A stretch of 64,000 bases of DNA from Clostridiales bacterium. GTDB taxonomy: Bacteria; Bacillota; Clostridia; TANB77; SIG350. The translations under genes were made by a program, and so were the position numbers. Below are positions 5,112-54,461 of the stretch, piece after piece. The first letter of the stretch is position 1. Every line of letters begins with the position of its first letter. The stretch lies in NCBI GenBank assembly GCA_015056545.1, contig SVGE01000004.1, positions 36,721 to 100,720 of the forward strand, written 5' to 3'. The notes under the pieces were generated by a model that was not told the DNA's origin, searched no databases, and saw only the letters and a list, made by a program, of their open reading frames with translations.

Positions 5112-5187
5112 GCGCCATTAGCTCAGTTGGTAGAGCAACTGACTCTTAATCAGTGGGTCCGGAGTTCGAGTCTCCGATGGCGCACCA
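5112..5187 (+). tRNA. tRNA-Lys (anticodon CTT)
   Basis: Cloverleaf folded by hand: acceptor gcgccat/atggcgc, anticodon loop cuCUUaa, T-loop ttcgagt, 3' CCA encoded. Confidence 0.85.
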
Positions 5188-8324: not shown

Positions 8325-8348
8325 TAGTAAATACGGTACAGCTCTAAC
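8325..8348. repeat. 9-bp-stem hairpin at the module boundary (acggtacag-ctctaa-ctgtaccgt); paralogous copy at 21040-21060
   Basis: Perfect inverted repeat overlapping the stop codon of the small ORF. A near-identical hairpin and G-rich flank are present at the second module. Confidence 0.6.
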
Positions 8349-8736
8349 TGTACCGTATCCTCTCTTTCATTAAATATCCATATATTTCATTTATTTTATT
8401 TCGTTTAGTTATATATCTATTTGCTATATTATATATTTCATTATATTTATTTTTATAATTTTCTTCTAATTCTATATTATATTTATTACTTCTATCAATT
8501 ACCTTATAATTTATACATTTAGCTTCTAATCTACTAATTACCTTATTTAATGCTACTTCTGGAAAACCACAACTATTTATATTTCCTTCTACTTTTTTAA
8601 TCTGATAATTATACATATATGAAATTATCTGACTAGCATCTTTTCCATATACATTTAAGAATTTACCTACCCTTATCATTACTATATCTTCTTTATGTAA
8701 TTCTTTAATTATTCTTACTATATTTATTATTCCCAT
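8344..8736 (-). CDS. small protein resembling MutS mismatch-recognition domain I (stand-alone), encoded at the Avd-like position 3' of a DGR-target-like gene
   Basis: 130 aa. The stretch IVMIRVGKFLNVYGKDASQI...NSCGFPEVALNKVISRLEAKCINYKVI aligns with the GxFYE...DA...GxP...L core of MutS domain I. This is recalled from memory, not searched. Confidence 0.5.
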   Translation of the reverse strand: MGIINIVRIIKELHKEDIVMIRVGKFLNVYGKDASQIISYMYNYQIKKVEGNINSCGFPEVALNKVISRLEAKCINYKVIDRSNKYNIELEENYKNKYNEIYNIANRYITKRNKINEIYGYLMKERIRYS

Positions 8737-8926
8737 ATCTTCTCCCCATCTAGCTTCCCAAAAAAGAACAGTTTAGAGAGTTGACTTGGGCTTCGTGGGC
8801 GGAAAATATTCTCCTCCCACGAGCTTAAATCCTTTATTATTTCAATATTTTTATTTTAATTTTTTCTATATTACTATTTCCAGCGCCTCGCAAGGTGACA
8901 AAAAGCCCCCTTGCGCGCAATGCTAG

Positions 8927-10195
8927 CTACTTTAATTCCCATGCTTTTTCTTCTGTTGTGCCTCCATCTGGTTCATCTATTACTTGGATATCAGAGCTTA
9001 GAGTAACTACTGGGCGCAAACCATACGCGCCTTCATTATCGTAGCCACTAGAAGTGAATACTTGGGTCCAGTTCAAGCCGCCTAAGTCCACACAGCGCAC
9101 AGCAAAGCAAGCCACATCACAGTCGAACCATATATCCACACAAGAAGAAGACAGCCAGTATTCACTGTTTCCAAAGTTTCCAAAGATTAAGTCCTTTTCT
9201 GTATCTGTCGCTACTGTTGCATCTGTTAAACTTGATTCTACATAACCATAAGAATTTGGAGCATATTCTCCTAGTTCTTTTCCTTCTTCTGGTACTTTTC
9301 TATTTGCTATTGTACTTACTCCTGTCGCTCCACTTGCTTCTAACTCTGCTATTGTTCTTACCCCTGCTGGTACATTATGACCTTCTTCATCTGTTCCAAA
9401 ATAGTCCCAGTTTATTTCGTTATCGCCCCATGTTCTGTCATCTTTTAATAGTTCATTTACATCTTCTATTTTTAAGTTTCTTCCTCCATATACTACTCTA
9501 CATATTTCATCTAATCTATCTGGACCGTATGCATATCCATTTGCTCCGCTTAGATATATATTCTCTACTGGTTCTGCACTTACTAATGTTACTGTATTTT
9601 CATCTTTTTTTAATACTCTCCACATTATATCTTGGTATCCTATTTCATAGCTTGCTGTAGAATAAAGCTTTTTATATATCCATTCTCTTTCATCTTCTGA
9701 TACTGTATATGTTCCTTGTTTCTCTTCTGGTATATTATAATTCACATAATGTCCTACTTGTAACTTTTTTACTACTGAATTTTCTGGTATTGCTCCTTTT
9801 CCTATTCCTAATTCTGCTAACCATATGTTATATGGGTCTTCAGTTCTTGTTCCTAATACTATCTCTCCATTACTTATTGCTATTAAGTCTTTATATTCTT
9901 CTTTTAATTCGGGGATTATTTCTTTTATTTTTTCATATTCTGTTTCATTATATAATCCACCTTCTCCATTTCCGGTTGCTAATTCTATTTGTTTTTCTGC
10001 ATTCTTTACTGCTAGTATTTCTTGATATGTTCGTATATCGCTTTTAAATACTGCTTCTTTTGCCTTCTCTATTATTCCACCTTCCATAAAAGTTACAATA
10101 ACTGCTGCTGTTAATATTATTAGCACAATTATTGTTACGATTAAAGCAACTAGCGATATACCTGATGTTTTTTTACTATTCTTTAAATTTTTCAT
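8927..10195 (-). CDS. pilin-like N-terminally anchored protein with C-terminal CLec-fold-like hypervariable region (putative DGR target), copy 1
   Basis: AGGAGG RBS. N-terminus MKNLKNSKKTSG-ISLVALIVTIIVLIIL (basic leader, Gly, hydrophobic helix). YWLSSS, then a ~117-nt variable segment, then YGLRPVVTLSS. The first 115 aa are 95% identical to the paralog at 21524-22747. Confidence 0.7.
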   Translation of the reverse strand: MKNLKNSKKTSGISLVALIVTIIVLIILTAAVIVTFMEGGIIEKAKEAVFKSDIRTYQEILAVKNAEKQIELATGNGEGGLYNETEYEKIKEIIPELKEEYKDLIAISNGEIVLGTRTEDPYNIWLAELGIGKGAIPENSVVKKLQVGHYVNYNIPEEKQGTYTVSEDEREWIYKKLYSTASYEIGYQDIMWRVLKKDENTVTLVSAEPVENIYLSGANGYAYGPDRLDEICRVVYGGRNLKIEDVNELLKDDRTWGDNEINWDYFGTDEEGHNVPAGVRTIAELEASGATGVSTIANRKVPEEGKELGEYAPNSYGYVESSLTDATVATDTEKDLIFGNFGNSEYWLSSSCVDIWFDCDVACFAVRCVDLGGLNWTQVFTSSGYDNEGAYGLRPVVTLSSDIQVIDEPDGGTTEEKAWELK

Positions 10196-10467
10196 AATCT
10201 CTTCTCCTCCTTAAAATTTAATCTTTTGTTATTACACAATTTTATTGTATAACACTTTCAGTTTTACTTTAACTGTTTCGTTGTAGTTTTTTGTTTTTTA
10301 TTACCTCCTTCCTCGGCTCTTTTTATTTTATTATTACCAAAATATATTTTTATATAATTTGGCAAACTAAAAGAACCTAAGACTACATTACGTTTTCTCG
10401 TAATATATTCTTAAGTTCTTTGCAAAAATTGGCATGTCAATTAAAGATGTTTTTATACTATAAACAT

Positions 10468-10477
10468 CCCCCCCCCC
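10468..10477. repeat. homopolymeric C10 tract (G10 on the coding strand) upstream of the copy-1 target gene
   Basis: Counted directly. The paralogous position in copy 2 has C8. It lies ~25 bp upstream of a TTGACA hexamer on the gene strand. Confidence 0.8.
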
Positions 10478-10654
10478 TAGTATTTAGCACTTTATGGCAT
10501 ATTGCTTTGGTTTTATTTGACATTTTCTTACACCTCTTTTCTTGTTTGTATACTATCATAGGCGTTTTAAAATTTCAATTGTTTTTTTGAAAAAAGGCTA
10601 AAAAATAATTAGAATACATTTTGTACTCTAATTATTTTCTTTATATATTTTTAC

Positions 10655-11410
10655 CTATTTAATTTTTTCAAAATAAATGTGTATATTAGACAATACTCCA
10701 TCATTAAAATAGAATTTTAACTCACTTCCATCTTCTCCATCAATATATGATGTTCCATATATTTTTTTAATTTCTTCTTCTGTTGTTACACCTACATGAA
10801 TATTACCTAATGAAGTACCTTCTGTTACATATACATTATGATAATATACTATATCACAATCATATATATTTTTAGGAGTATTTGAATTATTTTTTATTGC
10901 ACCATACCCAAAAGATAAATTAAAATTACAGTCAATAACAGTATTAGGCTCTACTATAATATTTTCTATTGCTTTTTCTTCTACGATATCTATAGTTTCA
11001 TATCCTAATAAATCTATATATTCTTGAGTATCTCTAACCAAACCAGATATTTCATCATTATTTATTTGATCTTTAATTGTTTGGTAATCTTTAACATCTA
11101 TCTCTTTTACTTCATTAAGTCTGCTAATACTTATTCCTAATTCTCTTGGTGTTTTTGTTAAGTCATAATCTACACCATCAATTGTAATAACACTAATATC
11201 TTTTTTACTTATTTTTTTATATTTATTTTCTTCTTCCAAAAATTCTTCATCTTCTAAATAATATCCATCATCATTTACATCATAATCATAATCATTATTA
11301 TCTTTATCATTATTGTTTGTTACAGCTTTAATAATACAAGCTACAACAAGAATTGCAAATATTGCTATCAATATTAATACTAACATTGTTATTCCATTTT
11401 TCTTTTTCAT
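10655..11410 (-). CDS. hypothetical membrane-anchored acidic protein
   Basis: N-terminal TM (ITMLVLILIAIFAILVVACII) followed by a D/E/N-rich region. Confidence 0.5.
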   Translation of the reverse strand: MKKKNGITMLVLILIAIFAILVVACIIKAVTNNNDKDNNDYDYDVNDDGYYLEDEEFLEEENKYKKISKKDISVITIDGVDYDLTKTPRELGISISRLNEVKEIDVKDYQTIKDQINNDEISGLVRDTQEYIDLLGYETIDIVEEKAIENIIVEPNTVIDCNFNLSFGYGAIKNNSNTPKNIYDCDIVYYHNVYVTEGTSLGNIHVGVTTEEEIKKIYGTSYIDGEDGSELKFYFNDGVLSNIHIYFEKIK

Positions 11411-11434
11411 ATCTTTTCTCCTTTTATATTAAAT

Positions 11435-12826
11435 TTATTTTTTCAAAAACTCTTTGTATCCTTTATATGCCATATAACAGTCATGTTTACTTGTAACTTC
11501 ATATGGTGAATGCATAGATAATACTGGAACACCACAGTCTATAACATCTGCACCTTTATCTGCAACTATATATGCGATAGTTCCGCCACCACCTTCATCA
11601 ACTTTTCCAAGTTCACCTGATTGGTATCTAACATTATTATCTTCAAATATTTTTCTAACATATGCAACATATTCTGCACATGCTTCACTTGAACCAGATT
11701 TTCCTCTAGCACCTGTATATTTTAATAAACAAATACCTTTTCCAATAAATGAACTATTTTTAGGATCTGATACTCCTGCAAATGTAGGGTCAAATGCAGC
11801 ATCTACATCTGATGATAACATTTTTGTATTTATATATAGCTTATTTAATAAATTATAACTTTCTTGTTTTAATTTAACAGCCATTTCCATTAACATGAAA
11901 TCTAATGTATTTGAACACATCCCAGTATTACCCATACTTCCTATTTCTTCTTTATCCATTAACATTGCAACACATGTTTTGTTTGGAATTTCAGTTAAAT
12001 CCATAATAGCTTTTGCTGAAGCAAATGAACATACCCTATCATCTTGACCATAACCAGCTATCATACTTTTATCAAAACCAACAAGTTTTGCTTCAAAGTT
12101 TGGTACTAATTCAAGTTCTGAACTTATGAAATCAGCTTCTGTTATTCCATATTTTTCATTTAATATTTTTAATATATTGTATTTTACTTTTTCATTAGCC
12201 TCTTTATCTTCACTTGGAATATTACCAACTAAAATATTTAAGTCTTCTCCTTCTATTCCTTCAGATAATTTCTTTTCCATTTGTCTTCTAGCTAAATGTG
12301 GTAATAAATCTGTTATAACAAAGATTGGATCATCTTTATCTTTACCAATAGATATTTCTACTTTTTCACCATTAGTTTTAATAATAACACCTCTTATTTC
12401 TAATGGAATAGTTACCCATTGATATTTTTTAATTCCACCATAATAGTGTGTTTTAAATAAAGCAAACCCTTCTGATTCATATAATGGATTTGGTTTTAAA
12501 TCTATTCTTGGTGAATCAATATGTGAACCTATTAAATTAATTCCTTTTTCTAATTGTTCATTACCGATAACTGCTAATAAAATATTTTTATCTCTGTTAA
12601 TATAATATACTTTATCACCTGGTTTTAAAGTTTTACATTTATCTAATTCTTTAAATCCTTGTTTTTTAGCTAATTTTTCAACATATTTAACACATTCTCT
12701 TTCTGTTTTACATTCATTTAAAAAATCAATATATTCGTTTGTATATCCATCTAATGTTTTCATTTCTTTTTTATTTAATGTATCCCAACCGCTTTTTCTA
12801 TTTAATAATAACTCGTCTTTTTTCAT
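11435..12826 (-). CDS. M18-family aminopeptidase
   Basis: 463 aa. GSHIDSPRIDLKPNP and the conserved metal-binding Asp/Glu/His pattern of M18/M42 peptidases. Confidence 0.75.
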   Translation of the reverse strand: MKKDELLLNRKSGWDTLNKKEMKTLDGYTNEYIDFLNECKTERECVKYVEKLAKKQGFKELDKCKTLKPGDKVYYINRDKNILLAVIGNEQLEKGINLIGSHIDSPRIDLKPNPLYESEGFALFKTHYYGGIKKYQWVTIPLEIRGVIIKTNGEKVEISIGKDKDDPIFVITDLLPHLARRQMEKKLSEGIEGEDLNILVGNIPSEDKEANEKVKYNILKILNEKYGITEADFISSELELVPNFEAKLVGFDKSMIAGYGQDDRVCSFASAKAIMDLTEIPNKTCVAMLMDKEEIGSMGNTGMCSNTLDFMLMEMAVKLKQESYNLLNKLYINTKMLSSDVDAAFDPTFAGVSDPKNSSFIGKGICLLKYTGARGKSGSSEACAEYVAYVRKIFEDNNVRYQSGELGKVDEGGGGTIAYIVADKGADVIDCGVPVLSMHSPYEVTSKHDCYMAYKGYKEFLKK

Positions 12827-13136
12827 TAAAAACTCTCCTCCTTAATACATATTATTTACAATACACTTACATTATATGTTTAATATTTTTAAAAGTCAAT
12901 TTTTATTTATTAAATTACATTTTCTTTATATAATTTTTTATTAATTTATGTCAATATTTACATTTTTTCCTTATGTATTTTTGTTGTTTTTGACATTTTT
13001 TAATATTTTTTTATTATTTATAAATTTAGAAATGTTACAGAATTATTACAAATATACTTTTTTACCATTTTCTCTTATCAAATGCAATTTTATGTGATAT
13101 AATGTCGATGGAAAATATATTTTAGGAGGTTTTTTT

Positions 13137-13388
13137 ATGAATAGATGTTCACGTTGCGGATGTTTTTTTGTAGGAAATGATACAGTTTGCTATAACTGTG
13201 TACCATATGATAATAATGATAGAGCTAAGTTAACTGATTTTTGTCAAGGCAATGAAGAAGTTACTTATGAAAATATATTATATAAAACTGGCATTGCACC
13301 TTCTAACTTATCAAGATTTCTAGAAATGCCAGATTATGCAAAAATAGCAAAAATAGTAGACAAAAAGGGAGTGGAATTTTATGAATAA
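13137..13388 (+). CDS. small zinc-ribbon protein (CxxC...CxxC), overlapping tyrS start
   Basis: Extended -10 TGTGATATAAT at ~13094, AGGAGG RBS, ATG at 13137. [11 protein letters not shown]...CYNC cysteine pairs. 8-nt overlap with tyrS. Confidence 0.55.
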
Positions 13389-14604
13389 TGTTTGGGACAT
13401 ACTTGAAGAAAGAGATTACATCGAACAAGCTACTTTTGGTGATGAATTAAAAGAATGGTTAGGAAAAGAAAAAACTACATTCTATATTGGTTTTGATCCA
13501 ACTGCAGATAGCTTACATGTTGGACATTTTATCTCTTTAATGGTTGCTTCACATATGCAAAAAGCTGGTCATACACCAATACTTTTAATTGGTGGTGGTA
13601 CTGCAATGATAGGCGATCCAAGTGGTAAAACAGATATGAGAAAAATGCTTACTAAAGAAGAAATTAATCATAATGTTGAATGTTTTAAAGTTCAAATGTC
13701 TAAATTTTTAAGCTTTGAAGGTGAAAACAAAGCTAGAATAGTAAATAATGCTGATTGGTTATTAGACTTAAATTATGTTGAATTCATTCGTGATATAGGT
13801 GTTCATTTCTCTGTAAATAGAATGCTTACTGCTGAATGTTTTAAACAAAGATTAGAAAGAGGTTTATCTTTCTTAGAATTCAACTATATGTTAATGCAAT
13901 CTTATGACTTTTTAGAATTATTTAATAATTATGGTTGTAGATTAGAACTAGGTGGAAATGACCAATGGTCAAATATTTTAGGTGGTGTTGAATTAATTAG
14001 AAAAGTAAAACAAACACCTGCATTTGGTCTAACATTTAAATTATTAACAAATTCAGAAGGAAAGAAAATGGGTAAAACAGTATCTGGAGCTTTATGGCTA
14101 GATCCTAATAAAACATCTCCATATGAATTTTATCAATATTGGATGAATATTAATGATGCTGATGTTAAAAAAGTTCTTTCTTTACTTACATTCTTACCAA
14201 TGGATGAAGTAAATAGATTATCTAGTTTAGAAGGTAGTGAAATTAACCAAGCTAAAAAAGTAGCTGCATATGAAATTACTAAAATTGTTCATGGTGAAGA
14301 TGAAGCTAATAAGGCAAAAGAAGCTGCAGAAGCATTATTTGGGCAAGGTGGAGATATTTCAAATATGCCAACTACTCAAATAAATAAAGCAGACTTTACA
14401 GGAAATATTTTAGATGTTTTAGTTATAACAAACTTAGCTCCATCAAAAAGTCAAGCAAGAACACTAATTGCTCAAGGTGGTATTAGTGTTAATGATATTA
14501 AAATAACAGATATTAATCACATAATATCTGAAGATGATTTTACTGATGGATATGTAATTGTTAAAAAAGGTAAAAAAGTATTCCATAAAGTTGAATTAAT
14601 ATAG
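13381..14604 (+). CDS. tyrS: tyrosine--tRNA ligase
   Basis: HIGH motif (LHVGHF), KMSKS motif (KMGKT), and C-terminal S4 domain. Confidence 0.9.
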
Positions 14605-14607
14605 TTT

Positions 14608-14640
14608 TTAAAGTACTGAAATTTATCAGTACTTTTTTTT
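14608..14640 (+). terminator. rho-independent terminator after tyrS
   Basis: agtactga-aattt-tcagtact hairpin followed by T8. Confidence 0.75.
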
Positions 14641-14705
14641 ATAAAAATATTGAAAATATCTTTTTACGTGATATAATTATACCAAAAGTAAAGGAGGTTT
14701 TTTTT

Positions 14706-15350
14706 ATGGATAAATTACAAGTATTATCTAAACTAAAAGAAGAAAAATTAGTTGCTGTTGTTAGAGCTGAAAGCAAAGAACAAGGCGAAAAAATTATTGA
14801 TGCAATTGTTAAAGGTGGAATTAATTTCATAGAAATTACTATGACAGTTCCTGGTGCAATTGATGTTATTAAAGAATTATCTAATAAATATAAAGATAAT
14901 AAAGATATTGTTATAGGTGCTGGTACAGTATTAGATGCTGAAACAGCTAGAATGGCTATTCTTGCTGGAGCTAAGTATGTTGTTAGCCCATCATTAAGTG
15001 TTGATACTATAAAAATGTGTAACAGATATAGAGTCGCTGTTATGCCAGGTGTAATGACTGTTAAAGAAGCTGTTGAAGCTTTAGAAATGGGTGTAGACAT
15101 ATTAAAAGTATTCCCTGGTAATGCATTTGGTCCAGACATAATAAAAGCATTTAAAGGTCCACTTCCACAAGCTAACTTTATGCCAACTGGTGGTGTATCA
15201 ATAGATAATGTAGATAAATGGCTTGCTGCTGGTGCTGTTGCACTTGGAACAGGAAGTAATTTAACAGCTGGTGCTAAAACAGGTGATTATGATTTAGTTA
15301 CTAAAACTGCTGCTGAATTTGTAGCTGCTGTTAGAAATTATAAAAAATAG
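14706..15350 (+). CDS. eda: 2-dehydro-3-deoxyphosphogluconate / KHG aldolase
   Basis: 214 aa. KDPG aldolase family pattern (VAVVRAE, EITMTVPGA, GAGTVLD). Confidence 0.8.
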   Translation: MDKLQVLSKLKEEKLVAVVRAESKEQGEKIIDAIVKGGINFIEITMTVPGAIDVIKELSNKYKDNKDIVIGAGTVLDAETARMAILAGAKYVVSPSLSVDTIKMCNRYRVAVMPGVMTVKEAVEALEMGVDILKVFPGNAFGPDIIKAFKGPLPQANFMPTGGVSIDNVDKWLAAGAVALGTGSNLTAGAKTGDYDLVTKTAAEFVAAVRNYKK

Positions 15351-15365
15351 TAAAGGAGTTTTGTT

Positions 15366-16460
15366 ATGTTAAATATTAAAGATAAAAAAGACTGTAAATA
15401 TGATGAAGTTTCACTTGGTGAAATAATGTTAAGACTTGATCCAGGTGAAGGAAGAATAAGATGTGCAAGAGAGTTCAAAGCTTGGGAAGGTGGCGGAGAA
15501 TATAATGTTGCTCGTGGTTTAAAAAAATGTTTCAAATTAGATACTGGTGTAATTACTGCATTTGCTGAAAATGAAATTGGTTATTTGTTAGAAGATTTCA
15601 TAATGCAAGGTGGTGTTGATACATCTTTAATAAAATGGATGAAATATGATGGTATTGGTAGAAGTGTAAGAAATGGTATTAACTTTACTGAAAGAGGATA
15701 TGGTGTTCGTGGTGCTGTAGGTACATCAGACAGAGCTAATACTGCTATTTCAAAAGCAACTGCAGAAGATTTCGATTTTGAATATATTTTTGGAACTTTA
15801 GGTGTAAGATGGTTGCATACAGGTGGTATATATGCTGCACTTTCTGAAGAAACTTCTAAAACAGTAATTGAAGCTATTAAAACAGCTAAAAAATATGGAA
15901 CAATTGTATCTTATGACTTAAACTACAGACCATCTCTTTGGAATGGTATTGGTGGAAAAGAAAAAGCTATTGAAGTAAATAAAGAAATAGCAAAATATGT
16001 TGATGTTATGATAGGAAATGAAGAAGATTTTACAGCTTGCTTAGGTTTTGAAATTGAAGGAAATGATGAAAACTTAAAAGAATTAAACATAGATGGATAC
16101 AAAAAAATGATAGATAATGTTGTAAAAGAATATCCAAACTTAAAAGTAGTTGCAACAACATTAAGAGAAGTAAAAACAGCAACTGTAAATGATTGGAGTG
16201 CATTATGCTGGGCAGAAGGTAAAATATATAAAGCTAATGACTATAAAGGATTAGAAATATTAGATAGAGTTGGTGGTGGAGATAGCTTCGCATCTGGTTT
16301 AATCTATGGATTAATGACATATCAAGATGCTGAAAAAGCTGTTAATTATGGTGCTGCACATGGTGCTCTTGCTATGACTACTCCAGGTGATACAACTATG
16401 GCTAATTTAAAAGAAGTAGAAAATTTAATGAAAGGTGCTTCTGCTAGAGTACAAAGATAG
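15366..16460 (+). CDS. kdgK: 2-dehydro-3-deoxygluconokinase (PfkB family sugar kinase)
   Basis: PfkB signature GGGDSFASGLIYGL. Immediately follows eda (KDG/KDPG pathway pair). Confidence 0.75.
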   Translation: MLNIKDKKDCKYDEVSLGEIMLRLDPGEGRIRCAREFKAWEGGGEYNVARGLKKCFKLDTGVITAFAENEIGYLLEDFIMQGGVDTSLIKWMKYDGIGRSVRNGINFTERGYGVRGAVGTSDRANTAISKATAEDFDFEYIFGTLGVRWLHTGGIYAALSEETSKTVIEAIKTAKKYGTIVSYDLNYRPSLWNGIGGKEKAIEVNKEIAKYVDVMIGNEEDFTACLGFEIEGNDENLKELNIDGYKKMIDNVVKEYPNLKVVATTLREVKTATVNDWSALCWAEGKIYKANDYKGLEILDRVGGGDSFASGLIYGLMTYQDAEKAVNYGAAHGALAMTTPGDTTMANLKEVENLMKGASARVQR

Positions 16461-16482
16461 TATTATTAGAAAGGTAAACTAT

Positions 16483-16674
16483 ATGGAAAATAATAAAATT
16501 GTAACTGTTATAGGAATTATACTAATTGCCATTTTAGGATGGATTTTAGTATCAAATATATTTTTCGCTGAAATGGGAAGACAAGTCCACAAAGAAGCAA
16601 ATGACGTTATTAATAATACAGCTGATGATATAAAAAAGTTAGAAGAGAATTTAAAAAATCTAGAAAATAATTAA
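16483..16674 (+). CDS. small single-TM protein
   Basis: Start moved to internal ATG (MENNKIVTVIGIILIAILGWILV) to avoid overlap with kdgK. A bidirectional terminator follows at ~16685-16730. Confidence 0.4.
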   Translation: MENNKIVTVIGIILIAILGWILVSNIFFAEMGRQVHKEANDVINNTADDIKKLEENLKNLENN

Positions 16675-16744
16675 CTATAATAACCAATAAAAAATGAAGT
16701 AAGTTTTTTAGCTTGCTTCATTTTTTTATTGATTATATTATGCT

Positions 16745-17404
16745 CTATAATATTTTATTTCCATTTATCACTAATTCAAATCTAGCTCCTAAAAAATTAG
16801 CTGCTTTTTTTGAAAGTAACATCCTATAAGTAAATATTTCAAAATATTCCATTATTTGAGTTATCTTAGTATCAATTACTAAATCTAACGTTATTGTTTT
16901 TGTTTCTTTATTTGGTATTATTTTAGATTTTTGAACAGAATAATTAACTCTATCATGTATATCAAAATTAGTTTTATTTGGATTACGTACTCTACTTTTA
17001 TGAACATCTGATTTATCTGCTAATATTAACGCAGCAGTTATAGGACTTACTGGTGTTCCTGTTCCTTCATCATGATTTCCTATTGCCATCATAATTTCAG
17101 CCGCTTCTGTATTATCCAATCCAATTTCTAAAAGTGTATAATATGCAAGTATTGCTCCTAAATGAGCATGGTCATTTCTATTTACAGCATTACCAATATC
17201 ATGAAGGTATCCTGCGATTTTACCAAGTTCAATTGTTCTTTCATCATATCCAAATTCTTTTAAAATATTTCCTGTTAATGTTGCTACAAATTTTGCATGT
17301 CTTGTTGAATGTTCTGTATATCCTAATTCATCTAATTGTCTTTGACAATTAATTATAAATGTTTTTATTTTTTCATTATTTTCAATATCTTTTAATTCTA
17401 TCAC
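16745..17404 (-). CDS. HD-domain phosphohydrolase
   Basis: H...HD motif (STRHAKFVATL...GYLHDIGN). Confidence 0.75.
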   Translation of the reverse strand: MIELKDIENNEKIKTFIINCQRQLDELGYTEHSTRHAKFVATLTGNILKEFGYDERTIELGKIAGYLHDIGNAVNRNDHAHLGAILAYYTLLEIGLDNTEAAEIMMAIGNHDEGTGTPVSPITAALILADKSDVHKSRVRNPNKTNFDIHDRVNYSVQKSKIIPNKETKTITLDLVIDTKITQIMEYFEIFTYRMLLSKKAANFLGARFELVINGNKIL

Positions 17405-17406
17405 TT

Positions 17407-17859
17407 TTATCTCCTCACATTACTAAAATTTACACCTATAATACCACCAATAATACCTGATAGCATAGCTGTTATTATCATTATAATTGAATATTTATCT
17501 AAAGTAAAGCCTACTTTTGTTAAACTACTAATTAAATAAACTAATCCTATATATATTGTAGAAATAATTACACCATTAACTAAACCATTACTTCCAATTT
17601 GTCTACAAAATATTAAGGTTGATAAAAATATAGAAAACATGGTTATTCCAATTACTACTGTTGGTATTGTACTATCTGGAACATTAGTATATGCTAAAAC
17701 AAATGAATATATTACTACTAATAAATATGTAAATGCAAATGTAAAAAAACATGCTTTAATAATACTCTTAATCTTATTATTTTCTCGTATTTCTTTAACT
17801 TCTTTATTCAAAAAAATCACCTCATAATATATGTATGAGGCAACCTTTATTTTATTCAT
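17407..17859 (-). CDS. small multi-pass membrane protein
   Basis: 150 aa with four hydrophobic segments. Confidence 0.5.
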   Translation of the reverse strand: MNKIKVASYIYYEVIFLNKEVKEIRENNKIKSIIKACFFTFAFTYLLVVIYSFVLAYTNVPDSTIPTVVIGITMFSIFLSTLIFCRQIGSNGLVNGVIISTIYIGLVYLISSLTKVGFTLDKYSIIMIITAMLSGIIGGIIGVNFSNVRR

Positions 17860-18541
17860 TTAATATTAAATTTGTTCTTATTATCTGATAATCATATATT
17901 GCAAGACCATTTTTTTCAATCGCTTGAATTATATAATCTGGCCTTAAATTATCCTTACTACCAGCTTTTGCTTTCATTTTAATACAAATATCATATTCAT
18001 CATTATCCACATATTTTTCCACATATACATTAATAATAAATGATTTAATATCTATATCTACTTTTGGCTTATCTGGTTTTACTTTTTTATCTACTAATAT
18101 TTCATTTGAATTAAATATATCTATTACTTTTTCAGCTAATTCATCTTTATTATTCTCATGTTCAAATTTAATATATACTTCATATTCAGACTCAATAACT
18201 TTTGCCATTAAGCTTTTATTATCTGTAACATAATTTGCTGTAATTATGTTAAAACCATTTGGTAAATTATTATTTAATCTTTCAATTAATTTATTTTCCT
18301 CCACATCTTCTTCAAGTTCAATTTCAATAATTTCAGATTTACTTATTAATCCTGAACCTGATGGAAGTGCAAATACTATATTAGGTTTTGGATTAAAACC
18401 TTGTGAAAACTTTAATTTAATGTCTGCTCTTCTAAATGTTCTATCAAACATAGTCATTGTATCTAAATGTCCTAAATATTTAACTTCATCATTTTTTTCA
18501 TATATTAGCCTATATTTACTCAAAGCAAACACCTCCTCCAA
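17852..18541 (-). CDS. radical-SAM-associated protein (DUF2344/TIGR03936-like)
   Basis: Translationally overlapped with the upstream TIGR03960-type radical SAM gene, a conserved gene pair. Confidence 0.6.
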   Translation of the reverse strand: MEEVFALSKYRLIYEKNDEVKYLGHLDTMTMFDRTFRRADIKLKFSQGFNPKPNIVFALPSGSGLISKSEIIEIELEEDVEENKLIERLNNNLPNGFNIITANYVTDNKSLMAKVIESEYEVYIKFEHENNKDELAEKVIDIFNSNEILVDKKVKPDKPKVDIDIKSFIINVYVEKYVDNDEYDICIKMKAKAGSKDNLRPDYIIQAIEKNGLAIYDYQIIRTNLILNE

Positions 18542-20363
18542 ATGATGCTATGCCACACCCTGAGCAGCTCTGTCTACAATTAGGAGTTACTTCGCCCTTT
18601 AAGGCTTTATCTAATTCTTTTTCAAAAAATTTTCTACTAACACCCATATTAATAAATTCCCATGGAAGTATTTCATCAAGTCTTCTTACTCTTTGTGCAT
18701 AAAACTCTTTACTTAAGCCACTTATTTCAAATGCTTTATTCCATTTTTGAATATCGAAATGTTCATCCCAACCATCAAATTTAGCACCTTGTTTCCATGC
18801 TTCATATATTAATTTAGATACTTTTCTATCACCTCTTGCAATAACCGCTTCCATAATACTTACATCTGGGTTATTCCAATTAAATGATACATTTCTATTC
18901 TTAGTAGCATTTTGCAAAAATTCTATTTTTTCTTGTATTAGTTTTTTGTCATTTTGACCAGCCCATTGAAAAGTTGTAAATGGTTTAGGAACAAATGTAG
19001 ATACACTAACTGTTACTTTTACATTTCTGCCTCTTTCATTTTTAGGTATTTTAAAAAACATATCTACAATTTTATTAGCTAAATCTGCTATTCCCTGCAA
19101 ATCTTCAAATGTTTCTGTTGGAAGTCCCATCATAAAATACAATTTAACAACTGTCCAACCTTTTCTAAATGCAATATCACAAGCTTTAAATATTTCCTCT
19201 TCATTAACATTTTTATTAATAACATTTCTAAGTCTTTGAGTACCTGCTTCAGGTGCTAATGTTAAACCAGATTTTCTTACACTATTCATTTTATCTAATA
19301 ATTTATCATCTATTGAATCTATTCTAAGTGATGGAAGTGATAAATTAATCTTCTTCTCTTTTGTCATATCTATAAGGTTGCTAGCTAATTCATGAAATTT
19401 TGTATAATCACTAGTACTTAATGATACAAGTGACATTTCTTCATAACCAGTACTATCTATACTTTCCTTTGCTATTTCAAGCAATCTATCTACACTTTTT
19501 TCTCTAACAGGCCTATATATATATCCTGCTTGACAAAATCTGCAACCACGAATACATCCTCTAAAAATTTCTAACATTGTTCTATCGTGTATAACACTAC
19601 TATATGGAACTATAGTTTTTGTAGGGAAAAACACTTTATCCAAATCTTTAATAATTCTTTTAGTAATATTTATTTTCTCATTATCTTTTCTTTTAAATTC
19701 AGAAATTGTTCCATCTTCATTGTATTTAGTTTCATATAGACATGGTACATATACACCTTGCACTTTGTCTACTTTTTCTAAAAATTCTTTTCTTGTCCCT
19801 TTACCATCTTTCCATTTAGCATATACATCCATTATCTCATTTATTACTTCTTCACCTTCACCTATAACAAAAAAGTCAATAAAATCTGCTAATGGTTCTG
19901 GATTACATGCACATGGCCCACCTGCTATAACAAATGGCATTCCTTCTTCTCTATCTTTTGCATATATTGGAATATTAGCTAAATCAAGCATATTTAATAT
20001 ATTTGTATATGTTAATTCATATTGAAGTGTAAATCCTACAAAATCAAAAGTCTTTATACTGTCTTTTGTCTCTAGTCCATATAATTCAATATTGTTTTTT
20101 CTCATCAAATTTTCCATTTCTATTGAAGGTGCAAATACTCTTTCACAATATGTATCTTCTCTATTATTCAAAAGATAATATAATATTTTCATACCTAAAT
20201 ATGACATACCTATTTCGTATACTTCTGGGAAACAAAAAGCAAACCTGATTTTTACATCATCAGGCTTTTTTATTACTTGATTTAATTCATTTCCAGTATA
20301 TATAATTGGATTTTGCACTGTAAGTAATTGCTTATTTGTTAATTTATTCATTTTCTGCCTCAC
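18516..20363 (-). CDS. B12-binding-domain radical SAM protein (TIGR03960-like)
   Basis: CIRGCRFCQAGY CxxxCxxC motif and an N-terminal B12-binding-like domain. 615 aa. Confidence 0.75.
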   Translation of the reverse strand: MRQKMNKLTNKQLLTVQNPIIYTGNELNQVIKKPDDVKIRFAFCFPEVYEIGMSYLGMKILYYLLNNREDTYCERVFAPSIEMENLMRKNNIELYGLETKDSIKTFDFVGFTLQYELTYTNILNMLDLANIPIYAKDREEGMPFVIAGGPCACNPEPLADFIDFFVIGEGEEVINEIMDVYAKWKDGKGTRKEFLEKVDKVQGVYVPCLYETKYNEDGTISEFKRKDNEKINITKRIIKDLDKVFFPTKTIVPYSSVIHDRTMLEIFRGCIRGCRFCQAGYIYRPVREKSVDRLLEIAKESIDSTGYEEMSLVSLSTSDYTKFHELASNLIDMTKEKKINLSLPSLRIDSIDDKLLDKMNSVRKSGLTLAPEAGTQRLRNVINKNVNEEEIFKACDIAFRKGWTVVKLYFMMGLPTETFEDLQGIADLANKIVDMFFKIPKNERGRNVKVTVSVSTFVPKPFTTFQWAGQNDKKLIQEKIEFLQNATKNRNVSFNWNNPDVSIMEAVIARGDRKVSKLIYEAWKQGAKFDGWDEHFDIQKWNKAFEISGLSKEFYAQRVRRLDEILPWEFINMGVSRKFFEKELDKALKGEVTPNCRQSCSGCGIASFGGGVCFE

Positions 20364-20868: not shown

Positions 20869-21089
20869 TCCTTACAAAAATATTATACTATTAATATATA
20901 TTTTTTGCAAGTAGGAAAATATACTGTAACATTCACTTCATATATGTAAATTTTTAAAATATGAGTAAATATTGTAAACAAACAATTTACACGCTCAAAT
21001 TTTAAAAATCCCGACCACCCACCTCAGACATGTAATAAGGTACAGCTCTCACTGTACCTTATTCTCCCATGATAATTTTTTTTACCTGT

Positions 21090-21480
21090 TTAATTATTTT
21101 AAATTTTTCAGATTTCATATACTATTTTTTCTATTTCTACTATTTTACCATTGATTTCATCATTAGTTAGGTTTTCCAGCAAATATCCATATATTTCATT
21201 TACCTTATTTCGTTTTGTTATATATTTGTTTGCTACATTATATATTTCTTCATATTTATTTTTATAATCTTCGTCTATTTCTACATTATATTCATTACTT
21301 CTATCAATTACCCTATAATTTATTTTTTTATCTTCTATTCTACTAATTACCTTATTTAATACTGTTTCTGGTAAAACCTTTAGCTTTTACATTACCTTCA
21401 ATTTTTTTAATCTGCTTAAATTTACATATATGAAATTATCTGACTAGCATCTTTTCCATATACATATATAAATTTAACTC
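21090..21480 (-). pseudogene. decayed paralog of the MutS-domain-I-like small ORF (copy 2)
   Basis: DNA is ~80% similar to 8344-8736, with indels, a missing N-terminal segment and no ORF of at least 60 aa. Confidence 0.6.
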
Positions 21481-21523
21481 CTCTTACCTTTACTACGTCC
21501 GACGCCCCCCACGCGCTTTCGTC

Positions 21524-22747
21524 CTATTTTATTTCCCAGGCTGTTTCTTGTGTATCTCCTCCTGCTTCTTTATCTACTACTTGGATGCTAGAGCTTAGAG
21601 TAACTACAGGGCGCAAACCATACACGCCGTCGTTCTCGCCACCAATCGAAGTGTACAAGTAGTACGCGCCCACGCGGTCGCCGCCCACATTGCGCACATC
21701 GAAGTCCGCAACGTCGTCGTAGAAACGAACATAAGCGCAAGACGAAGACAGCCAGTAGTACTTATCTCTAAATATCATGTCTTTTGCTTTTTCACTCGCT
21801 TCTGTACATTCTGATTTATTATAGTAGTAATATAACTCTAATTCTTCATAATTGTCGGGTTTGCTCCAACCACTTACATCATATTCTTCCTCTGCTATTG
21901 CGTCTCCAAATGTAAACCCTATTTCTTTATTTACTTGATTATACTCTTCGTCATCATAACATGGCTCTGGTTCATATTTTAATACTTCATTTACATCTTC
22001 TACTCTTAAGTTCCTTCCTCCATATACTTCTGCACATATTGCATCTAATGCTCCTGGTCCTTTTGTAAATCCTTCTTCTCCATATAGGTATATATTTTCC
22101 ACTGGGTCTGCACTTACTAATGTTACTGTGCTGCCATTATTTTTTAGTACTCTCCACTTTATTTCTTCGTTATATCCTATTACTTCTTCTCCTTCAGTAT
22201 ATGACCAACTTTCATCTCCATCATTATATATCCAATTTGTTGCTTCTGCTCCCAGTTTTTCGGTTATATTATATGTCTTTCTTTCTCCTTCCGGTATACT
22301 ATATTTTACATAGTCTCCTTCTTCTAATAATCCTATATCTGATGTTTCTCCTTCTCCTATCCCTAATTCTGCTAACCATTCACTATATGGGTCATCAGTT
22401 CTTGTTCCTAATACTATTTCTCCATTACTTATTGCTATTAAATCCTTATATTCTTCTTTAAATTCGGGGATTATTTCTTTGATTTTTTCATATTCTGTTT
22501 CATTATATAATCCGCCTTCTCCATTTCCGGTTGCTAATTCTATTTGTTTTTCTGCATTCTTTACTGCTAGTATTTCTTGATATGTTCTTATATCACTTTT
22601 AAATACCGCTTCTTTTGCCTTCTCTATTATTCCACCTTCCATAAAAGTTACAATAACTGCTGCTGTTAATATTATTAATACAATTATTGTTACTATTAGT
22701 GCAACTAAGCTTATACCTGATGTTCTACTATTTCTTAAATTCTTCAT
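21524..22747 (-). CDS. pilin-like N-terminally anchored protein with C-terminal hypervariable region (putative DGR target), copy 2
   Basis: Paralog of 8927-10195. N-terminal 115 aa and C-terminal 30 aa are conserved. The variable segment 21624-21741 is ~58% GC and encodes DDVADFDVRNVGGDRVGA using NNC codons. Confidence 0.7.
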   Translation of the reverse strand: MKNLRNSRTSGISLVALIVTIIVLIILTAAVIVTFMEGGIIEKAKEAVFKSDIRTYQEILAVKNAEKQIELATGNGEGGLYNETEYEKIKEIIPEFKEEYKDLIAISNGEIVLGTRTDDPYSEWLAELGIGEGETSDIGLLEEGDYVKYSIPEGERKTYNITEKLGAEATNWIYNDGDESWSYTEGEEVIGYNEEIKWRVLKNNGSTVTLVSADPVENIYLYGEEGFTKGPGALDAICAEVYGGRNLRVEDVNEVLKYEPEPCYDDEEYNQVNKEIGFTFGDAIAEEEYDVSGWSKPDNYEELELYYYYNKSECTEASEKAKDMIFRDKYYWLSSSCAYVRFYDDVADFDVRNVGGDRVGAYYLYTSIGGENDGVYGLRPVVTLSSSIQVVDKEAGGDTQETAWEIK

Positions 22748-23020
22748 AATTTTTTCCTCCTTTGAATTTTAAATTTGTTATTACACAATTTTATTGTGTA
22801 ACACTTTTGGTTTAATTTCAACTGTTTTGTTGTAGTTTTTTTATTTTTCTTTTTACTACCTCCTTCCTCGGCTCTTTATTTTATTATTGCCAAAATATAT
22901 TTTTATATAATTGGGCAAAACAAAAGAACCTAAGACTACATTACGTTTTCTCGTAATATATTCTTAAGTTCTCTATATTTTTTGGCATGTCAATTAAAGA
23001 TGTCCTTATTCTATAGAACA

Positions 23021-23028
23021 CCCCCCCC
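23021..23028. repeat. homopolymeric C8 tract upstream of the copy-2 target gene
   Basis: Counted directly. The paralogous tract in copy 1 is C10. Confidence 0.8.
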
Positions 23029-23233
23029 TAGTATTTAGCACTTTCTGGCACTTTACTCTGGTTTTATTTGACATTTTCTTACACCTACTTTCTTGTTTGT
23101 AATATATCATAGGCATTTCATCTTTTCAATAGTTTAAATACAAATATATCTTTTATTTATCATATTTTTTCTTTACTATATGAATTATTCATGTTAAAAT
23201 TTTCTTGATAGAAAATATAAAGGAGGAAACTTT

Positions 23234-29368: not shown

Positions 29369-30571
29369 TTATATATCCTTTAGACTTACTTCTAAATTTT
29401 CAAATATATGTGACTTTATATTTTCACCAAAACTATATTGCTGTTTTAATTCATATTTATTTTTTTCATTTAAAACAAATATGTCTGTTATTCTCGTTAC
29501 AGGATCTACTATCCAATATTCTTTTACTCCATATTTTTCATATATCTTATATTTTCTTATTCTATCATGTGTAACATTACTAGATAATATTTCTACTACT
29601 AGTGTTGGTGCTCCATATATTCCATCAGATTTTATCTTTTCCATATCACATACTATCATTATATCTGGCTGAACCACAACTGATGTATTTTCTTTTTCTT
29701 CCCCATCCAAAAATACATCAAATGGTTCAACATATGATTTGCATTTTTTCCCCTTTAAGAATCTTTTAAACTCAAACGAGATTTCACCTAATATATCTTG
29801 ATGAATTTCTTTTGGACTTGCAAATAAAAATATTTCGCCATATATTAACTCATACCTTTTATCTCCAAATATTGCTTCTGCCTCCTCATATGTATAATTG
29901 TTTATTCTATATGCTTCTCTTGGCTCTTGTAACATAGATATATTTTTATTTTCTTTTTTTATTTCATAATCTTCATTATAATATTCTTTTAAATTTACTT
30001 GCAAATTTTCAAATATATATGATTTTATATTTTCATCAAAACTATATTGCTGTTTTAATTCATATTTATTTTTTTCATTTAAAACAAATATATCTGTTAT
30101 TCTCGTTACAGGATCTACTATCCAATATTCTTTTACTCCATATTTTTCATATATCTTATATTTTCTTATTCTATCATGTGTAACATTACTAGATAATATT
30201 TCTACTACTAGTGTTGGTACTCCATATATTCCATCAGATTTTATCTTTTCCATATCACATACTATCATTATATCTGGCTGAACCACTATTTCTCTATCTT
30301 CTTTTTCTTTTCCATCTAAAAAAACATCAAATGGTGCTATATATGATTTGCATTTTTTTTGTTCAAAAAAATTGCCAAATACTCTTGAAATCTTTCCTAA
30401 TATATCTTGATGAATTTCTTTTGGACTTGCAAATAAAAATATTTCCCCATATATTAACTCATACCTTTTATCCCCAAATATTGCTTCTGCCTCCTCATAT
30501 GTATAATTGTTTATTTTATATGCTTCTCTTGGCTCTTGTAACATAGATATATTATCTTTTTCATTTTCCAT
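29369..30571 (-). CDS. tandem double Uma2-family (DUF820, PD-(D/E)xK) endonuclease fusion
   Basis: Two ~200-aa repeats (NISMLQEPREAY...IVDPVTR) encoded by ~600-bp DNA repeats about 97% identical (29400-29990 vs 30000-30590). RBS-supported start at MENEKD. Confidence 0.7.
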   Translation of the reverse strand: MENEKDNISMLQEPREAYKINNYTYEEAEAIFGDKRYELIYGEIFLFASPKEIHQDILGKISRVFGNFFEQKKCKSYIAPFDVFLDGKEKEDREIVVQPDIMIVCDMEKIKSDGIYGVPTLVVEILSSNVTHDRIRKYKIYEKYGVKEYWIVDPVTRITDIFVLNEKNKYELKQQYSFDENIKSYIFENLQVNLKEYYNEDYEIKKENKNISMLQEPREAYRINNYTYEEAEAIFGDKRYELIYGEIFLFASPKEIHQDILGEISFEFKRFLKGKKCKSYVEPFDVFLDGEEKENTSVVVQPDIMIVCDMEKIKSDGIYGAPTLVVEILSSNVTHDRIRKYKIYEKYGVKEYWIVDPVTRITDIFVLNEKNKYELKQQYSFGENIKSHIFENLEVSLKDI

Positions 30572-30597
30572 TTTATATTTCTCCTTTCTATCTCTAT

Positions 30598-31188
30598 TTA
30601 ACAAGATATTCTAAATTTATTATTGTCAATATTTTTTAAATCTACTTCTAAACCATTAAAGATTTTTGATTTAACTATTCCATTAAATAAAATTTTACTT
30701 ATTAATTCATATTTATTTAGATTATCTAATACATATATTTTTACTAATCTTTTATTTATATCAACTATCCAATATTCCTTTACTCCATATTTTCCATATA
30801 GCTTCATCTTCTTTTTATTATAATTAGTAGCATTAACTTCTATTTCAACTATTAATACTGGTACACCATATATTCCATCTTCTTTAATATATTCTTCTTT
30901 TTGTATTACCATAATATCTGGTTTTATTATATATTTTGCTATTTCTTTATTATCACTATCTAATATTAAATCAATTTGTCCCAAAAATGGCTCATAATTC
31001 TTATTCTTAAAATATTTTCTAAAGGTTTCAAATATTTCATACAATATTCGTTGGTGAGTTAATCTTCTGTTTGATATTAAATATTTTTCTCCATTTATTA
31101 CTTTAAATCTATTATCTGATATATTTTCTATCTTATCCATTCTCATCACCTCTGGATATATTGTACAACAATTTTCTTTATTTGTCAA
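30598..31188 (-). CDS. Uma2-family (DUF820) putative endonuclease
   Basis: 196 aa, with the same family motifs (D...EVDL / VKEYWIVD) as the adjacent duplicated gene. Confidence 0.65.
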   Translation of the reverse strand: MTNKENCCTIYPEVMRMDKIENISDNRFKVINGEKYLISNRRLTHQRILYEIFETFRKYFKNKNYEPFLGQIDLILDSDNKEIAKYIIKPDIMVIQKEEYIKEDGIYGVPVLIVEIEVNATNYNKKKMKLYGKYGVKEYWIVDINKRLVKIYVLDNLNKYELISKILFNGIVKSKIFNGLEVDLKNIDNNKFRISC

Positions 31189-40829: not shown

Positions 40830-40906
40830 TGGTGTACCTAGCTGGATTCGAACCAGCGGCCTCTCCCTTAGGAGGGGAGCGCTCTATCCTACTGAGCTAT
40901 AGATAC
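40830..40906 (-). tRNA. tRNA-Arg (anticodon CCT)
   Basis: Cloverleaf folded by hand on the minus strand, with anticodon loop cuCCUaa and T-loop ttcgaat. Followed by hairpin aggattgagtatactcaatcct and a T-run (terminator at 40733-40770). Confidence 0.8.
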
Positions 40907-42766: not shown

Positions 42767-42843
42767 TGGTAGCGGCAGTTAGAATCGAACTAACGACACT
42801 ACGGGTATGAACCGTATGCTCTAGCCAACTGAGCTATGCCGCC
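42767..42843 (-). tRNA. tRNA-Met (anticodon CAT; probably elongator or tRNA-Ile2, not initiator)
   Basis: Cloverleaf folded by hand. The anticodon stem lacks the three G-C pairs of an initiator. A terminator hairpin with T-run lies at 42738-42766. Confidence 0.75.
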
Positions 42844-52687: not shown

Positions 52688-52960
52688 AAAAACAAAATAG
52701 CTATACTTAAGTCCTACATAGGACGAAGTATAGCTCCGCGTTACCACCTAAATTTATATTAAATACACTTCCGTATTTATATACACTCAAAACTTTTAAC
52801 GCAAGTTAAACGATATTTCCTACTTAATTCAAAAATACATCTCAAAAGTGAAATTTCAATAAAGGTATATTAGTAGGCTCACAGCTTAATAACCTACATT
52901 CTCTCAAATATATTGTCTTTATCTACTTTGCTTTGTCATCGACTTTACTTTAATATATTA
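52688..52960 (-). promoter_or_regulatory. T-box riboswitch leader of pheST
   Basis: Minus-strand AAATTTAGGTGGTAACGCGG matches the T-box consensus (52736-52755). The overlapping terminator hairpin agctatacttcgtcctatgtaggacttaagtatagct plus T-run lies at 52688-52736. Confidence 0.8.
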
Positions 52961-54372: not shown

Positions 54373-54461
54373 GCAGGAGTGGCGGAACAGGCAGACGCAC
54401 AGGACTTAAAATCCTGCGGGAGTTAAATCCCGTACCGGTTCGATTCCGGTTTCCTGCACCA
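54373..54461 (+). tRNA. tRNA-Leu (anticodon TAA)
   Basis: Anticodon loop cuUAAaa, long variable arm, CCA encoded. TTGACA promoter at ~54336 and terminator at ~54462-54510. Confidence 0.85.

Follow-up and report, generated by a model that had tools for sequence, protein, structure and literature searches.

Probable variable regions of an MSL-type diversity-generating retroelement in two paralogous genes of an uncultured, very low-GC Clostridiales bacterium

Diversity-generating retroelements (DGRs) transfer sequence from a template repeat (TR) to a variable region (VR) with mutagenesis at adenines, as in the prototype from Bordetella phage BPP-1 (mtd, avd, TR, brt), for which target recognition was reported by Guo et al. 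(2011, PMC3240598). Wu et al. (2018, PMC5758913) described DGRs that contain a MutS_I-like gene (MSL; 'Architecture D': MSL, avd, TR and the reverse transcriptase, RT) as well as non-adjacent, or remote, targets, and characterized the MSL family as small proteins (112-283 aa) with similarity to MutS domain I, found in DGR cassettes also together with avd. The MSL-containing DGR of Legionella pneumophila, with a small MutS domain I-like gene and avd upstream of TR and RT and with adenine-specific mutagenesis, and the DGR of Treponema denticola, where one RT and TR serve several distant chromosomal paralogs (seven non-adjacent targets, TvpA family), resemble the system reported here (PMC5758913). 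We analyzed a stretch of 64,000 nucleotides (the window; assembly GCA_015056545.1, contig SVGE01000004.1, positions 36,721 to 100,720) from the metagenome-assembled genome (MAG) of an uncultured Clostridiales bacterium. It holds two paralogous genes, copy 1 and copy 2 (Table 1), whose unusual C-terminal segments, VR1 and VR2, the initial annotation had interpreted as variable regions of a DGR.

Our results support this interpretation, and they change which of the two genes bears it out. An RT, an Avd and a 151-nt TR were located in the same MAG on another contig (L077, a 204-kb JGI contig), in a cassette of the order target, MSL, avd, TR, RT. The window thus probably contains two members of a multigene surface-protein family whose C-terminal domain is the VR of this DGR, copy 2 being a target in trans and copy 1 a relic; we put the probability of this reading at roughly 0.88. 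The type of system is already known, and what we describe is another active MSL-type DGR, here in an uncultured gut Clostridiales of very low GC content.

That the segment is a plain hypervariable loop, formed under diversifying selection and by gene conversion among paralogs with no retroelement at work, is refuted by two sets of data. First, VR2 differs from the TR (46 adenines in 151 nt) at 26 of the 46 adenines and at none of the 105 other positions, the pattern that the initial annotation had asked to be checked. Secondly, when two samples were compared over 9,224 aligned bp that include the cassette, every one of the 33 differences fell on a TR adenine in the VR of the cassette-adjacent target, and the TRs were identical; the element is consequently active. 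Two further observations also speak against a plain loop. In an alignment of six VRs made before the TR was known, the 34 invariant columns among 117 core positions were T, G or C and never A, and the scaffold residues are encoded by adenine-free codons (CTG, TCT/TCG, GTG, CGC, TTC) that are unusual for a 25% GC genome. On the other side stand the mosaic and divergent character of further parts of the genes, and the lack of an RT within 10 kb of nine family members. Taken together, we regard an ordinary loop as having practically no chance of being the right explanation.

The same comparison with the TR separates the members of the family, which are named here by locus tag or P number. The cassette-adjacent target differs at 27/46 adenines and 0/105 other positions, and P0014 at 24/46 and 1/105 with an additional one-codon deletion. 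The differences at non-adenine positions are far more numerous in P0009 (28/46 and 14/105), P0003 (30/46 and 16/105), P0002 (30/46 and 18/105), copy 1 (29/46 and 26/105) and P0013 (25/46 and 44/105). Copy 1, the gene that headed the original claim, therefore fails against the extant TR the check that copy 2 passes. The suggestion that the variable residues are those reachable by adenine substitution fared likewise: it holds for copy 2, in which 50/50 codons are reachable from the TR, as are all codons of the six known alleles of the adjacent target, and it does not hold for copy 1, in which 12/50 are unreachable. Across the VRs, TR-adenine positions are occupied by A in ~35-43%, G in 35-43%, T in 13-20% and C in 4-11% of cases, and the variable residues are nearly all from the AAY-reachable set. 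Between P0002 and P0003, which come from different samples, 22 of the 24 differences in the 117-nt core fall at first or second codon positions; of the 25 in the entire 151-nt VR, 19 are at TR-adenine positions (p = 3e-7).

Both genes stand at the annotated coordinates, on the minus strand, and the compositional signal itself was confirmed. Measured in 60-nt windows along their coding strand, the share of A drops from ~45% to 10-13% at the C-terminal segment and that of G+C climbs from ~30% to 50-65%, against a GC content of 25.3% for the window as a whole. Some of the earlier figures need adjustment. For the 114 nt that separate YWLSSSC from YGLRPVV (9026-9139 in copy 1, 21623-21736 in copy 2) we measured 18% and 16% A, instead of ~13%, and 51% and 59% GC, where 48-58% had been given. 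The two copies are 93% identical over the first 345 nt (~95% had been estimated) and 59% over the 114-nt core (~50% estimated); the ~95% claimed for the last ~30 codons was not recovered, the last 90 nt being 79% identical. The middle 690 nt are 61% identical, so the C-terminal segment is not the sole divergent part of the genes, and among the divergent parts of both genes the adenine-poor composition is confined to it. We considered whether the GC-richness could stem wholly from A-to-N replacement of an AT-rich TR. This was ruled out by the TR itself, which has 44% GC; with adenine-free codons for the invariant residues, much of the GC-richness of the VRs is a property of the scaffold. According to the established DGR model, the RT together with Avd would copy TR RNA and misincorporate opposite adenines, and the cDNA would then replace the VR. 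The 46 positions would be randomized, chiefly the first two bases of AAC/AAT codons, and the scaffold residues from adenine-free codons would stay fixed.

The cassette was located via a 90%-identity cluster listing, through one paralog with alleles differing solely in the VR and then through its neighbourhood. Its RT carries IGNMTSQ and YQDD, in agreement with the DGR-type pattern of (I/V/L)GxxxSQ plus YxDD, and the NCBI record of the RT has the same MAG source set as the window genes. The Avd protein matched NF033474 (DivGenRetAVD) with E = 1.8e-10 and 41 bits, under the curated cut-off of 80, and the MSL product agrees with the MSL definition as a small MutS domain I protein encoded beside avd. 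The target-MSL-avd module recurs in a related genome, GCA_052835025.1, together with an RT from the same clade, which indicates a conserved DGR lineage of low-GC Clostridia and not a one-off. Directly downstream of the RT, at L077 13725-14598, lies a gene for an Rpn-family recombination-promoting nuclease/putative transposase (PDDEXK_2, TIGR01784), a 78-nt piece of which recurs near another paralog (L008 5245-5322); this gene might have something to do with how parts of the cassette spread.

The initial annotation had stated that the window is without an RT and a template repeat, and this was borne out. A tblastn search with the genome's own RT gave only hits of E > 2 in the window, searches with the two conserved VR flanks found no TR there, and the whole cassette compared with the window by blastn matched only the targets, MSL and remnants of the start of avd. 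An open reading frame (ORF) scan of the window for YxDD was also negative, with a pattern that would have missed YQDD. The flanks are equally restricted: within the window, the 5' anchor TACTGGCTGTCTTC(T/G)TCTTG occurs at copy 1 and copy 2 only, and the 3' flank GTATGGTTTGCGCCC(A/T)GTAGTTACTCTAAGCTCT matches exactly at each copy and has no other site. The duplication is wider than the genes, as ~360 nt upstream and a downstream stretch with a MutS domain I-like ORF are also repeated.

Table 1. Coordinates of features in the window and of the DGR cassette on contig L077
Feature	Location	Strand	Basis or remark
Copy 1, target-family paralog, 422 aa (NCBI E7311_03790)	window 8927..10195	-	ORF
VR1, best read as a relic	window 9007..9157	-	151 nt, TR-homologous, adenine-poor, drifted
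GC-rich hairpin after copy 1 stop	window 8883..8918	-	RNA fold -23.4 kcal/mol, z-score -2.2; DNA fold -11.2 kcal/mol
MSL ORF downstream of copy 1, intact, 130 aa	window 8344..8736	-	Pfam MutS_I, E = 6.3e-9
Conserved upstream region of copy 1	window 10196..10588	-	homologous to those of copy 2 and the cassette-adjacent target
Copy 2, target-family gene, 407 aa (NCBI E7311_03855)	window 21524..22747	-	ORF; identical to P0138
VR2	window 21604..21754	-	151 nt homologous to TR, from TGGCTGTCTTC to CGCCCTGTAG
3' flank of VR2 (TTACTCTAAGCTCTAGCATCCAAGTAGTAGAT), candidate determinant of the IMH type (see text)	window 21572..21603	-	sequences compared directly
GC-rich element right after copy 2 stop (GGACGAAAGCGCGTGGGGGGCGTC), 5' hairpin arm	window 21501..21523	-	comparison with L077
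Cassette remnant, pseudogene: 5'-truncated MSL and ~first 60 nt of avd	window 21058..21500	-	blastn
Conserved upstream region of copy 2, presumed promoter/leader, 36-aa ORF inside	window 22748..23135	-	repeats D6, D8, D18; shared with all paralogs and the cassette-adjacent target
Cassette-adjacent target P0141 (NCBI MBE5822044.1, same MAG)	L077 10001-11224		
MSL, 146 aa	L077 11313-11753		Pfam MutS_I
bAvd	L077 11743-12087		Pfam PF22296
TR, 151 nt	L077 12115-12265		
RT, 318 aa	L077 12482-13438		Pfam RVT_1
T-box leader	window 52716-52948	-	Rfam
tRNA genes (four)	window 5112-5184, 40833-40906, 42770-42843, 54373-54458		Rfam

Copy 2 has been rewritten from the present template. The part of the gene outside the VR has diverged by 13.2% from that of the cassette-adjacent target, and if VR2 had merely co-diverged with the rest of the gene the probability of finding 0 of 105 differences would be ~3.5e-7. 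It follows that the present TR was copied into VR2 at a time when the two genes had already separated, and hence that copy 2 has served as a remote target, by homing in trans. Remains of the cassette lie behind it. The stretch downstream is 91% identical over 449 nt to L077 11360-11803, a match that begins 47 nt into MSL and runs ~60 nt into avd, and it contains no minus-strand ORF of at least 25 aa; the upstream region is 81% identical to L077 9730-9934.

TR/VR homology ends after CCTGTAG, 5 nt past GGTTTGCGCCC. This GC-rich sequence, shared by both genes, had been taken for a VR-side IMH-type element (IMH, initiation of mutagenic homing), an assignment that is not upheld, since the same sequence stands in TR and VR. 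VR-specific information of this type would consequently lie in the next stretch, TTACTCTAAGCTCT. The 3' flank of VR2 equals that of the cassette-adjacent VR, it is conserved in copy 1 as well, and it differs from the sequence after the TR; by analogy with BPP-1 (PMC3240598) it would be a candidate IMH-type determinant. In BPP-1, too, the VR ends in GC-rich sequence that is the same in the TR and has VR-specific sequence after it. After the stop codon of the adjacent target there is in addition a complete GC-rich hairpin, cut short at copy 2 by the deletion that made the MSL/avd junction. Its fold on L077 (-12.4 kcal/mol, z-score -1.0) is no better than that of shuffled sequences, no comparable fold exists at copy 2, and copy 1 has a hairpin of another sequence type, common to P0003 and P0002. 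Any role of the element left after the copy 2 stop is speculative.

Copy 2 may remain an active remote target, with the missing alleles reflecting consensus assembly and closely related samples: VR2 stands in a perfect adenine-only relation to an extant TR, it was rewritten after gene divergence, the 32 nt of 3' flank are the same as at the active target, and other DGRs have known remote targets (PMC5758913). However, the same samples give six VR alleles on ~20 contigs for the adjacent target and a single one on ~15 contigs for copy 2, and the downstream deletion removes half of the hairpin found at the active target. We regard continued activity as a real possibility, the odds being somewhat against it. 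More probably, copy 2 is now rewritten rarely or not at all, one possible reason being that the deletion took the 3' arm of the GC-rich hairpin after the stop.

Several points should make us cautious about the overall interpretation. No single contig joins the window and the cassette, and the link between them consists of MAG binning, co-occurrence across samples and the perfect TR match. Neither window copy varies in its VR between assemblies, the single allele of VR2 included. Loss of the hairpin is a weak explanation for the stasis of copy 2: the hairpin on L077 is the sole GC-rich one and lies ~88 nt past the VR, compared with 4-34 bp in the phage elements (PMC3240598), and this distance, together with a fold no better than shuffles, makes its equivalence to the BPP-1 cruciform doubtful.

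VR-restricted polymorphism between samples, for which the initial annotation had proposed to look, was seen in the cassette-adjacent VR and in neither of the window genes. Six alleles of the adjacent target (P0017 and P0141-P0145) are identical over 407 aa save the VR. Four of them (P0017, P0141, P0144 and P0145) have the 5' third of the VR (CALVGFSGDYADFYVRRV) in common and differ only further 3', the pattern expected of partial conversions starting at the 3' end of the VR; BPP-1 offers a parallel. In the window, 20 kb compared with contigs from six samples were 99.98-99.995% identical, and the copy 1 protein was present, without any change, on 18 contigs that come from several metagenomes of goat-gut enrichments. 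The samples were compared as consensus assemblies, in which minority VR variants would not show. The element is active on its adjacent target; on the window genes, no activity was seen in the consensus assemblies.

Copy 1 has a different history. Its divergence from the cassette-adjacent target amounts to 26.1% in the gene outside the VR and to 24.8% at those VR positions that are not TR adenines, and the equality of these values means that this TR has not overwritten it since the split. The 26 non-adenine differences of VR1 include 18 at third positions of codons and 7 that change the base to A, as ordinary drift would produce. Copy 1, P0003 and P0002 have 8 identical non-adenine differences from the TR in common, and P0003 and P0002 share 14; the differences among the three are mainly at TR-adenine positions (30/52 and 19/25; p <= 1e-6). 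Shared scaffold differences combined with mutual differences at TR adenines indicate that the three were written in mutagenic events of their own, from a variant scaffold that was either an ancestral TR or a second one. It could be hypothesized that the three genes are current targets of such a second TR (TR-B) elsewhere in the genome, served by the same or a second RT. The shared scaffold, the distinct hairpin common to the three genes and the intact MSL gene retained by copy 1 agree with this. Against it, VR1 has 18 private non-adenine differences, its 26 such differences in all show the pattern expected from drift at a level equal to the divergence of the remaining gene, and the copy 1 protein does not vary between contigs. 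Moreover, among the best 120 of 2,472 related compact RTs retrieved there is no second RT with the source signature of the MAG, the other RTs all being <=73% identical, and ~170 kb of the genome inspected contain no TR-like sequence. A second template in current use is therefore improbable, and copy 1 is best read as carrying a VR from an older or variant TR that has since drifted, a relic and not a current target.

The region downstream of copy 1 is 83.5% identical in nucleotide sequence to L077 11213-11687 (intergenic region and MSL), and its MSL ORF, 77% identical in amino acids to the cassette MSL, no longer adjoins avd, TR or RT. The paralogs appear to have arisen by repeated duplication of the target with the left part of the cassette, which accounts for the intact MSL beside copy 1 and the MSL/avd stump beside copy 2. 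The upstream region of copy 1 is 83% identical to L077 9720-9934. Both upstream regions contain a conserved minus-strand ORF of 33-36 aa (…YKQE.RCKKMSNKT…KVLNTRGG…; window 10458-10559 and 23006-23116), at the site of which gene callers place ORFs of 44-51 aa at other loci; it may be translated or act as a leader. On the ENA contig L003 (1-10000, compared with window 10196-20195), genes for DnaB, Fic, TilS and FtsH replace the M18 peptidase and radical SAM genes of the window. The two arrangements part within the conserved sequence upstream of copy 1, exactly where several other contigs end, which points to assembly breaks, chimeras or a real rearrangement at repeated family sequences.

That target and MSL were copied as a unit, and that MSL is intact beside copy 1 after ~26% divergence, makes a local role of MSL conceivable, for instance binding of the mismatched cDNA/VR heteroduplex at acceptor sites, with 'target-hairpin-MSL' as the functional remote acceptor. 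We consider this a long shot. If true, copies losing the hairpin or MSL, such as copy 2, would freeze, and a little-studied MutS-like accessory protein would have a cis role in DGR retrohoming.

The target family has at least 13 full-length paralogs in the MAG (locus tags E7311_), scattered among housekeeping genes, with a common N-terminal hydrophobic segment and the C-terminal frame YWLSSSC...GLRPVVTLSS. We infer that they are surface proteins with a pilin-like N-terminal segment and a putative lectin-like C-terminal domain that acts as the DGR acceptor. No Pfam or NCBIfam model matches the target protein, and this includes the prepilin models, whose motif is G|FxxxE; the N-terminus of the target reads G-ISLVA, with Ala in place of Glu5, and the resemblance to pilins consists of a Gly followed by a ~22-residue hydrophobic helix, no more. 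The PGAP/NCBI label of the adjacent target is 'type II secretion system protein'. Distant homologs (25-30% identity, in organisms of 26-28% GC) show the same frame, hypervariability between near-identical proteins and an adenine-poor composition. One paralog, P0010 (E7311_04245, L072 11026-11264), was considered as a TR-like copy and rejected as a frameshifted pseudogene with the C-terminus (…VVTLTSSTQVADITGDGSSADSAWQLK) in another frame.

The N-terminal part of the family also occurs elsewhere. P0030 and P0032-P0039 form a second family of ~320 aa with the same N-terminal 125-aa module and another hypervariable C-terminus (YWLGS ... GVRPVITISESAVN), which varies in length between paralogs and thereby argues against a retroelement origin of that variability. 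P0024, P0026-P0029, P0031 and P0040 combine the module (the hydrophobic segment with ~100 aa; identity 75-85%) with C-terminal domains of the leucine-rich-repeat and other kinds. In this genome the module behaves as an anchor common to several surface-protein families.

Compared with the described systems, the locus differs in several respects. Unlike the Legionella DGR, the present one resides in an uncultured Clostridiales with 25% GC, obtained in goat-gut enrichments, its targets form a family that lacks a domain model and has the pilin-like hydrophobic N-terminal segment, and target and MSL part are duplicated many times around the chromosome. Treponema uses HRDC and not MSL (PMC5758913), and in contrast to its targets just three VRs here are TR-consistent (adjacent target, copy 2 and P0014), with ~ten paralogs as drifted relics. 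In relation to BPP-1, with which it shares the possession of Avd, the present element is cellular and not phage-borne, and the catalytic motif of its RT is YQDD. The TR of BPP-1 holds 23 adenines, half the number found here. A diversified domain on a protein with a pilin-type N-terminus has a parallel in the DGR-diversified adhesins of Bacteroides type V pili (bioRxiv 10.1101/2024.11.15.621889), and 'GspG-type pilin' VR carriers are rare (PMC11661182); here, by contrast with the pilus adhesins, the N-terminus has neither the type IV pilin Glu5 nor a match to a prepilin model.

The finding leaves the understanding of the DGR mechanism unchanged. It shows that a DGR acceptor can be recognized by composition from raw sequence with the retroelement out of view, and it brings forward a large, uncharacterized acceptor family that is widespread in gut-type metagenomes. 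One genome holds a graded series of VRs, from actively rewritten through TR-consistent but static to drifted relic, which offers material for studying the recruitment and loss of remote targets and the MutS-like accessory gene.

Searches in other collections added little. The VR domain had no tblastn match in phages and plasmids; a profile search seeded with real VR domains and two synthetic TR-peptides returned only C-terminal fragments of the same family; an exact-pattern scan of GTDB genomes, a set without this MAG, gave chance hits only; and three pattern scans of IMG/VR gave chance hits or none. Pattern scans of the JGI metagenome collection had zero matches, even with a pattern that fits both window VRs. 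A TR-specific pattern used there would have fitted the real TR, and the scans are uninformative on the TR, the organism being absent from the collection. Roux et al. (2021) state that their own approach cannot detect remote targets, and their supplementary tables are uninformative on the contigs of the sample.

Rfam has no family at or near either gene, and its sole matches in the window are the T-box leader and the four tRNA genes of Table 1. Finally, near-perfect direct repeats with a 609-nt period lie at window 29369-31188 inside minus-strand ORFs and represent either a gene with internal repeats or paralogs in tandem, with no bearing on the DGR finding; the units at 29376-29675 and 29985-30284 are 97% identical, and a third near 30760 is more diverged.

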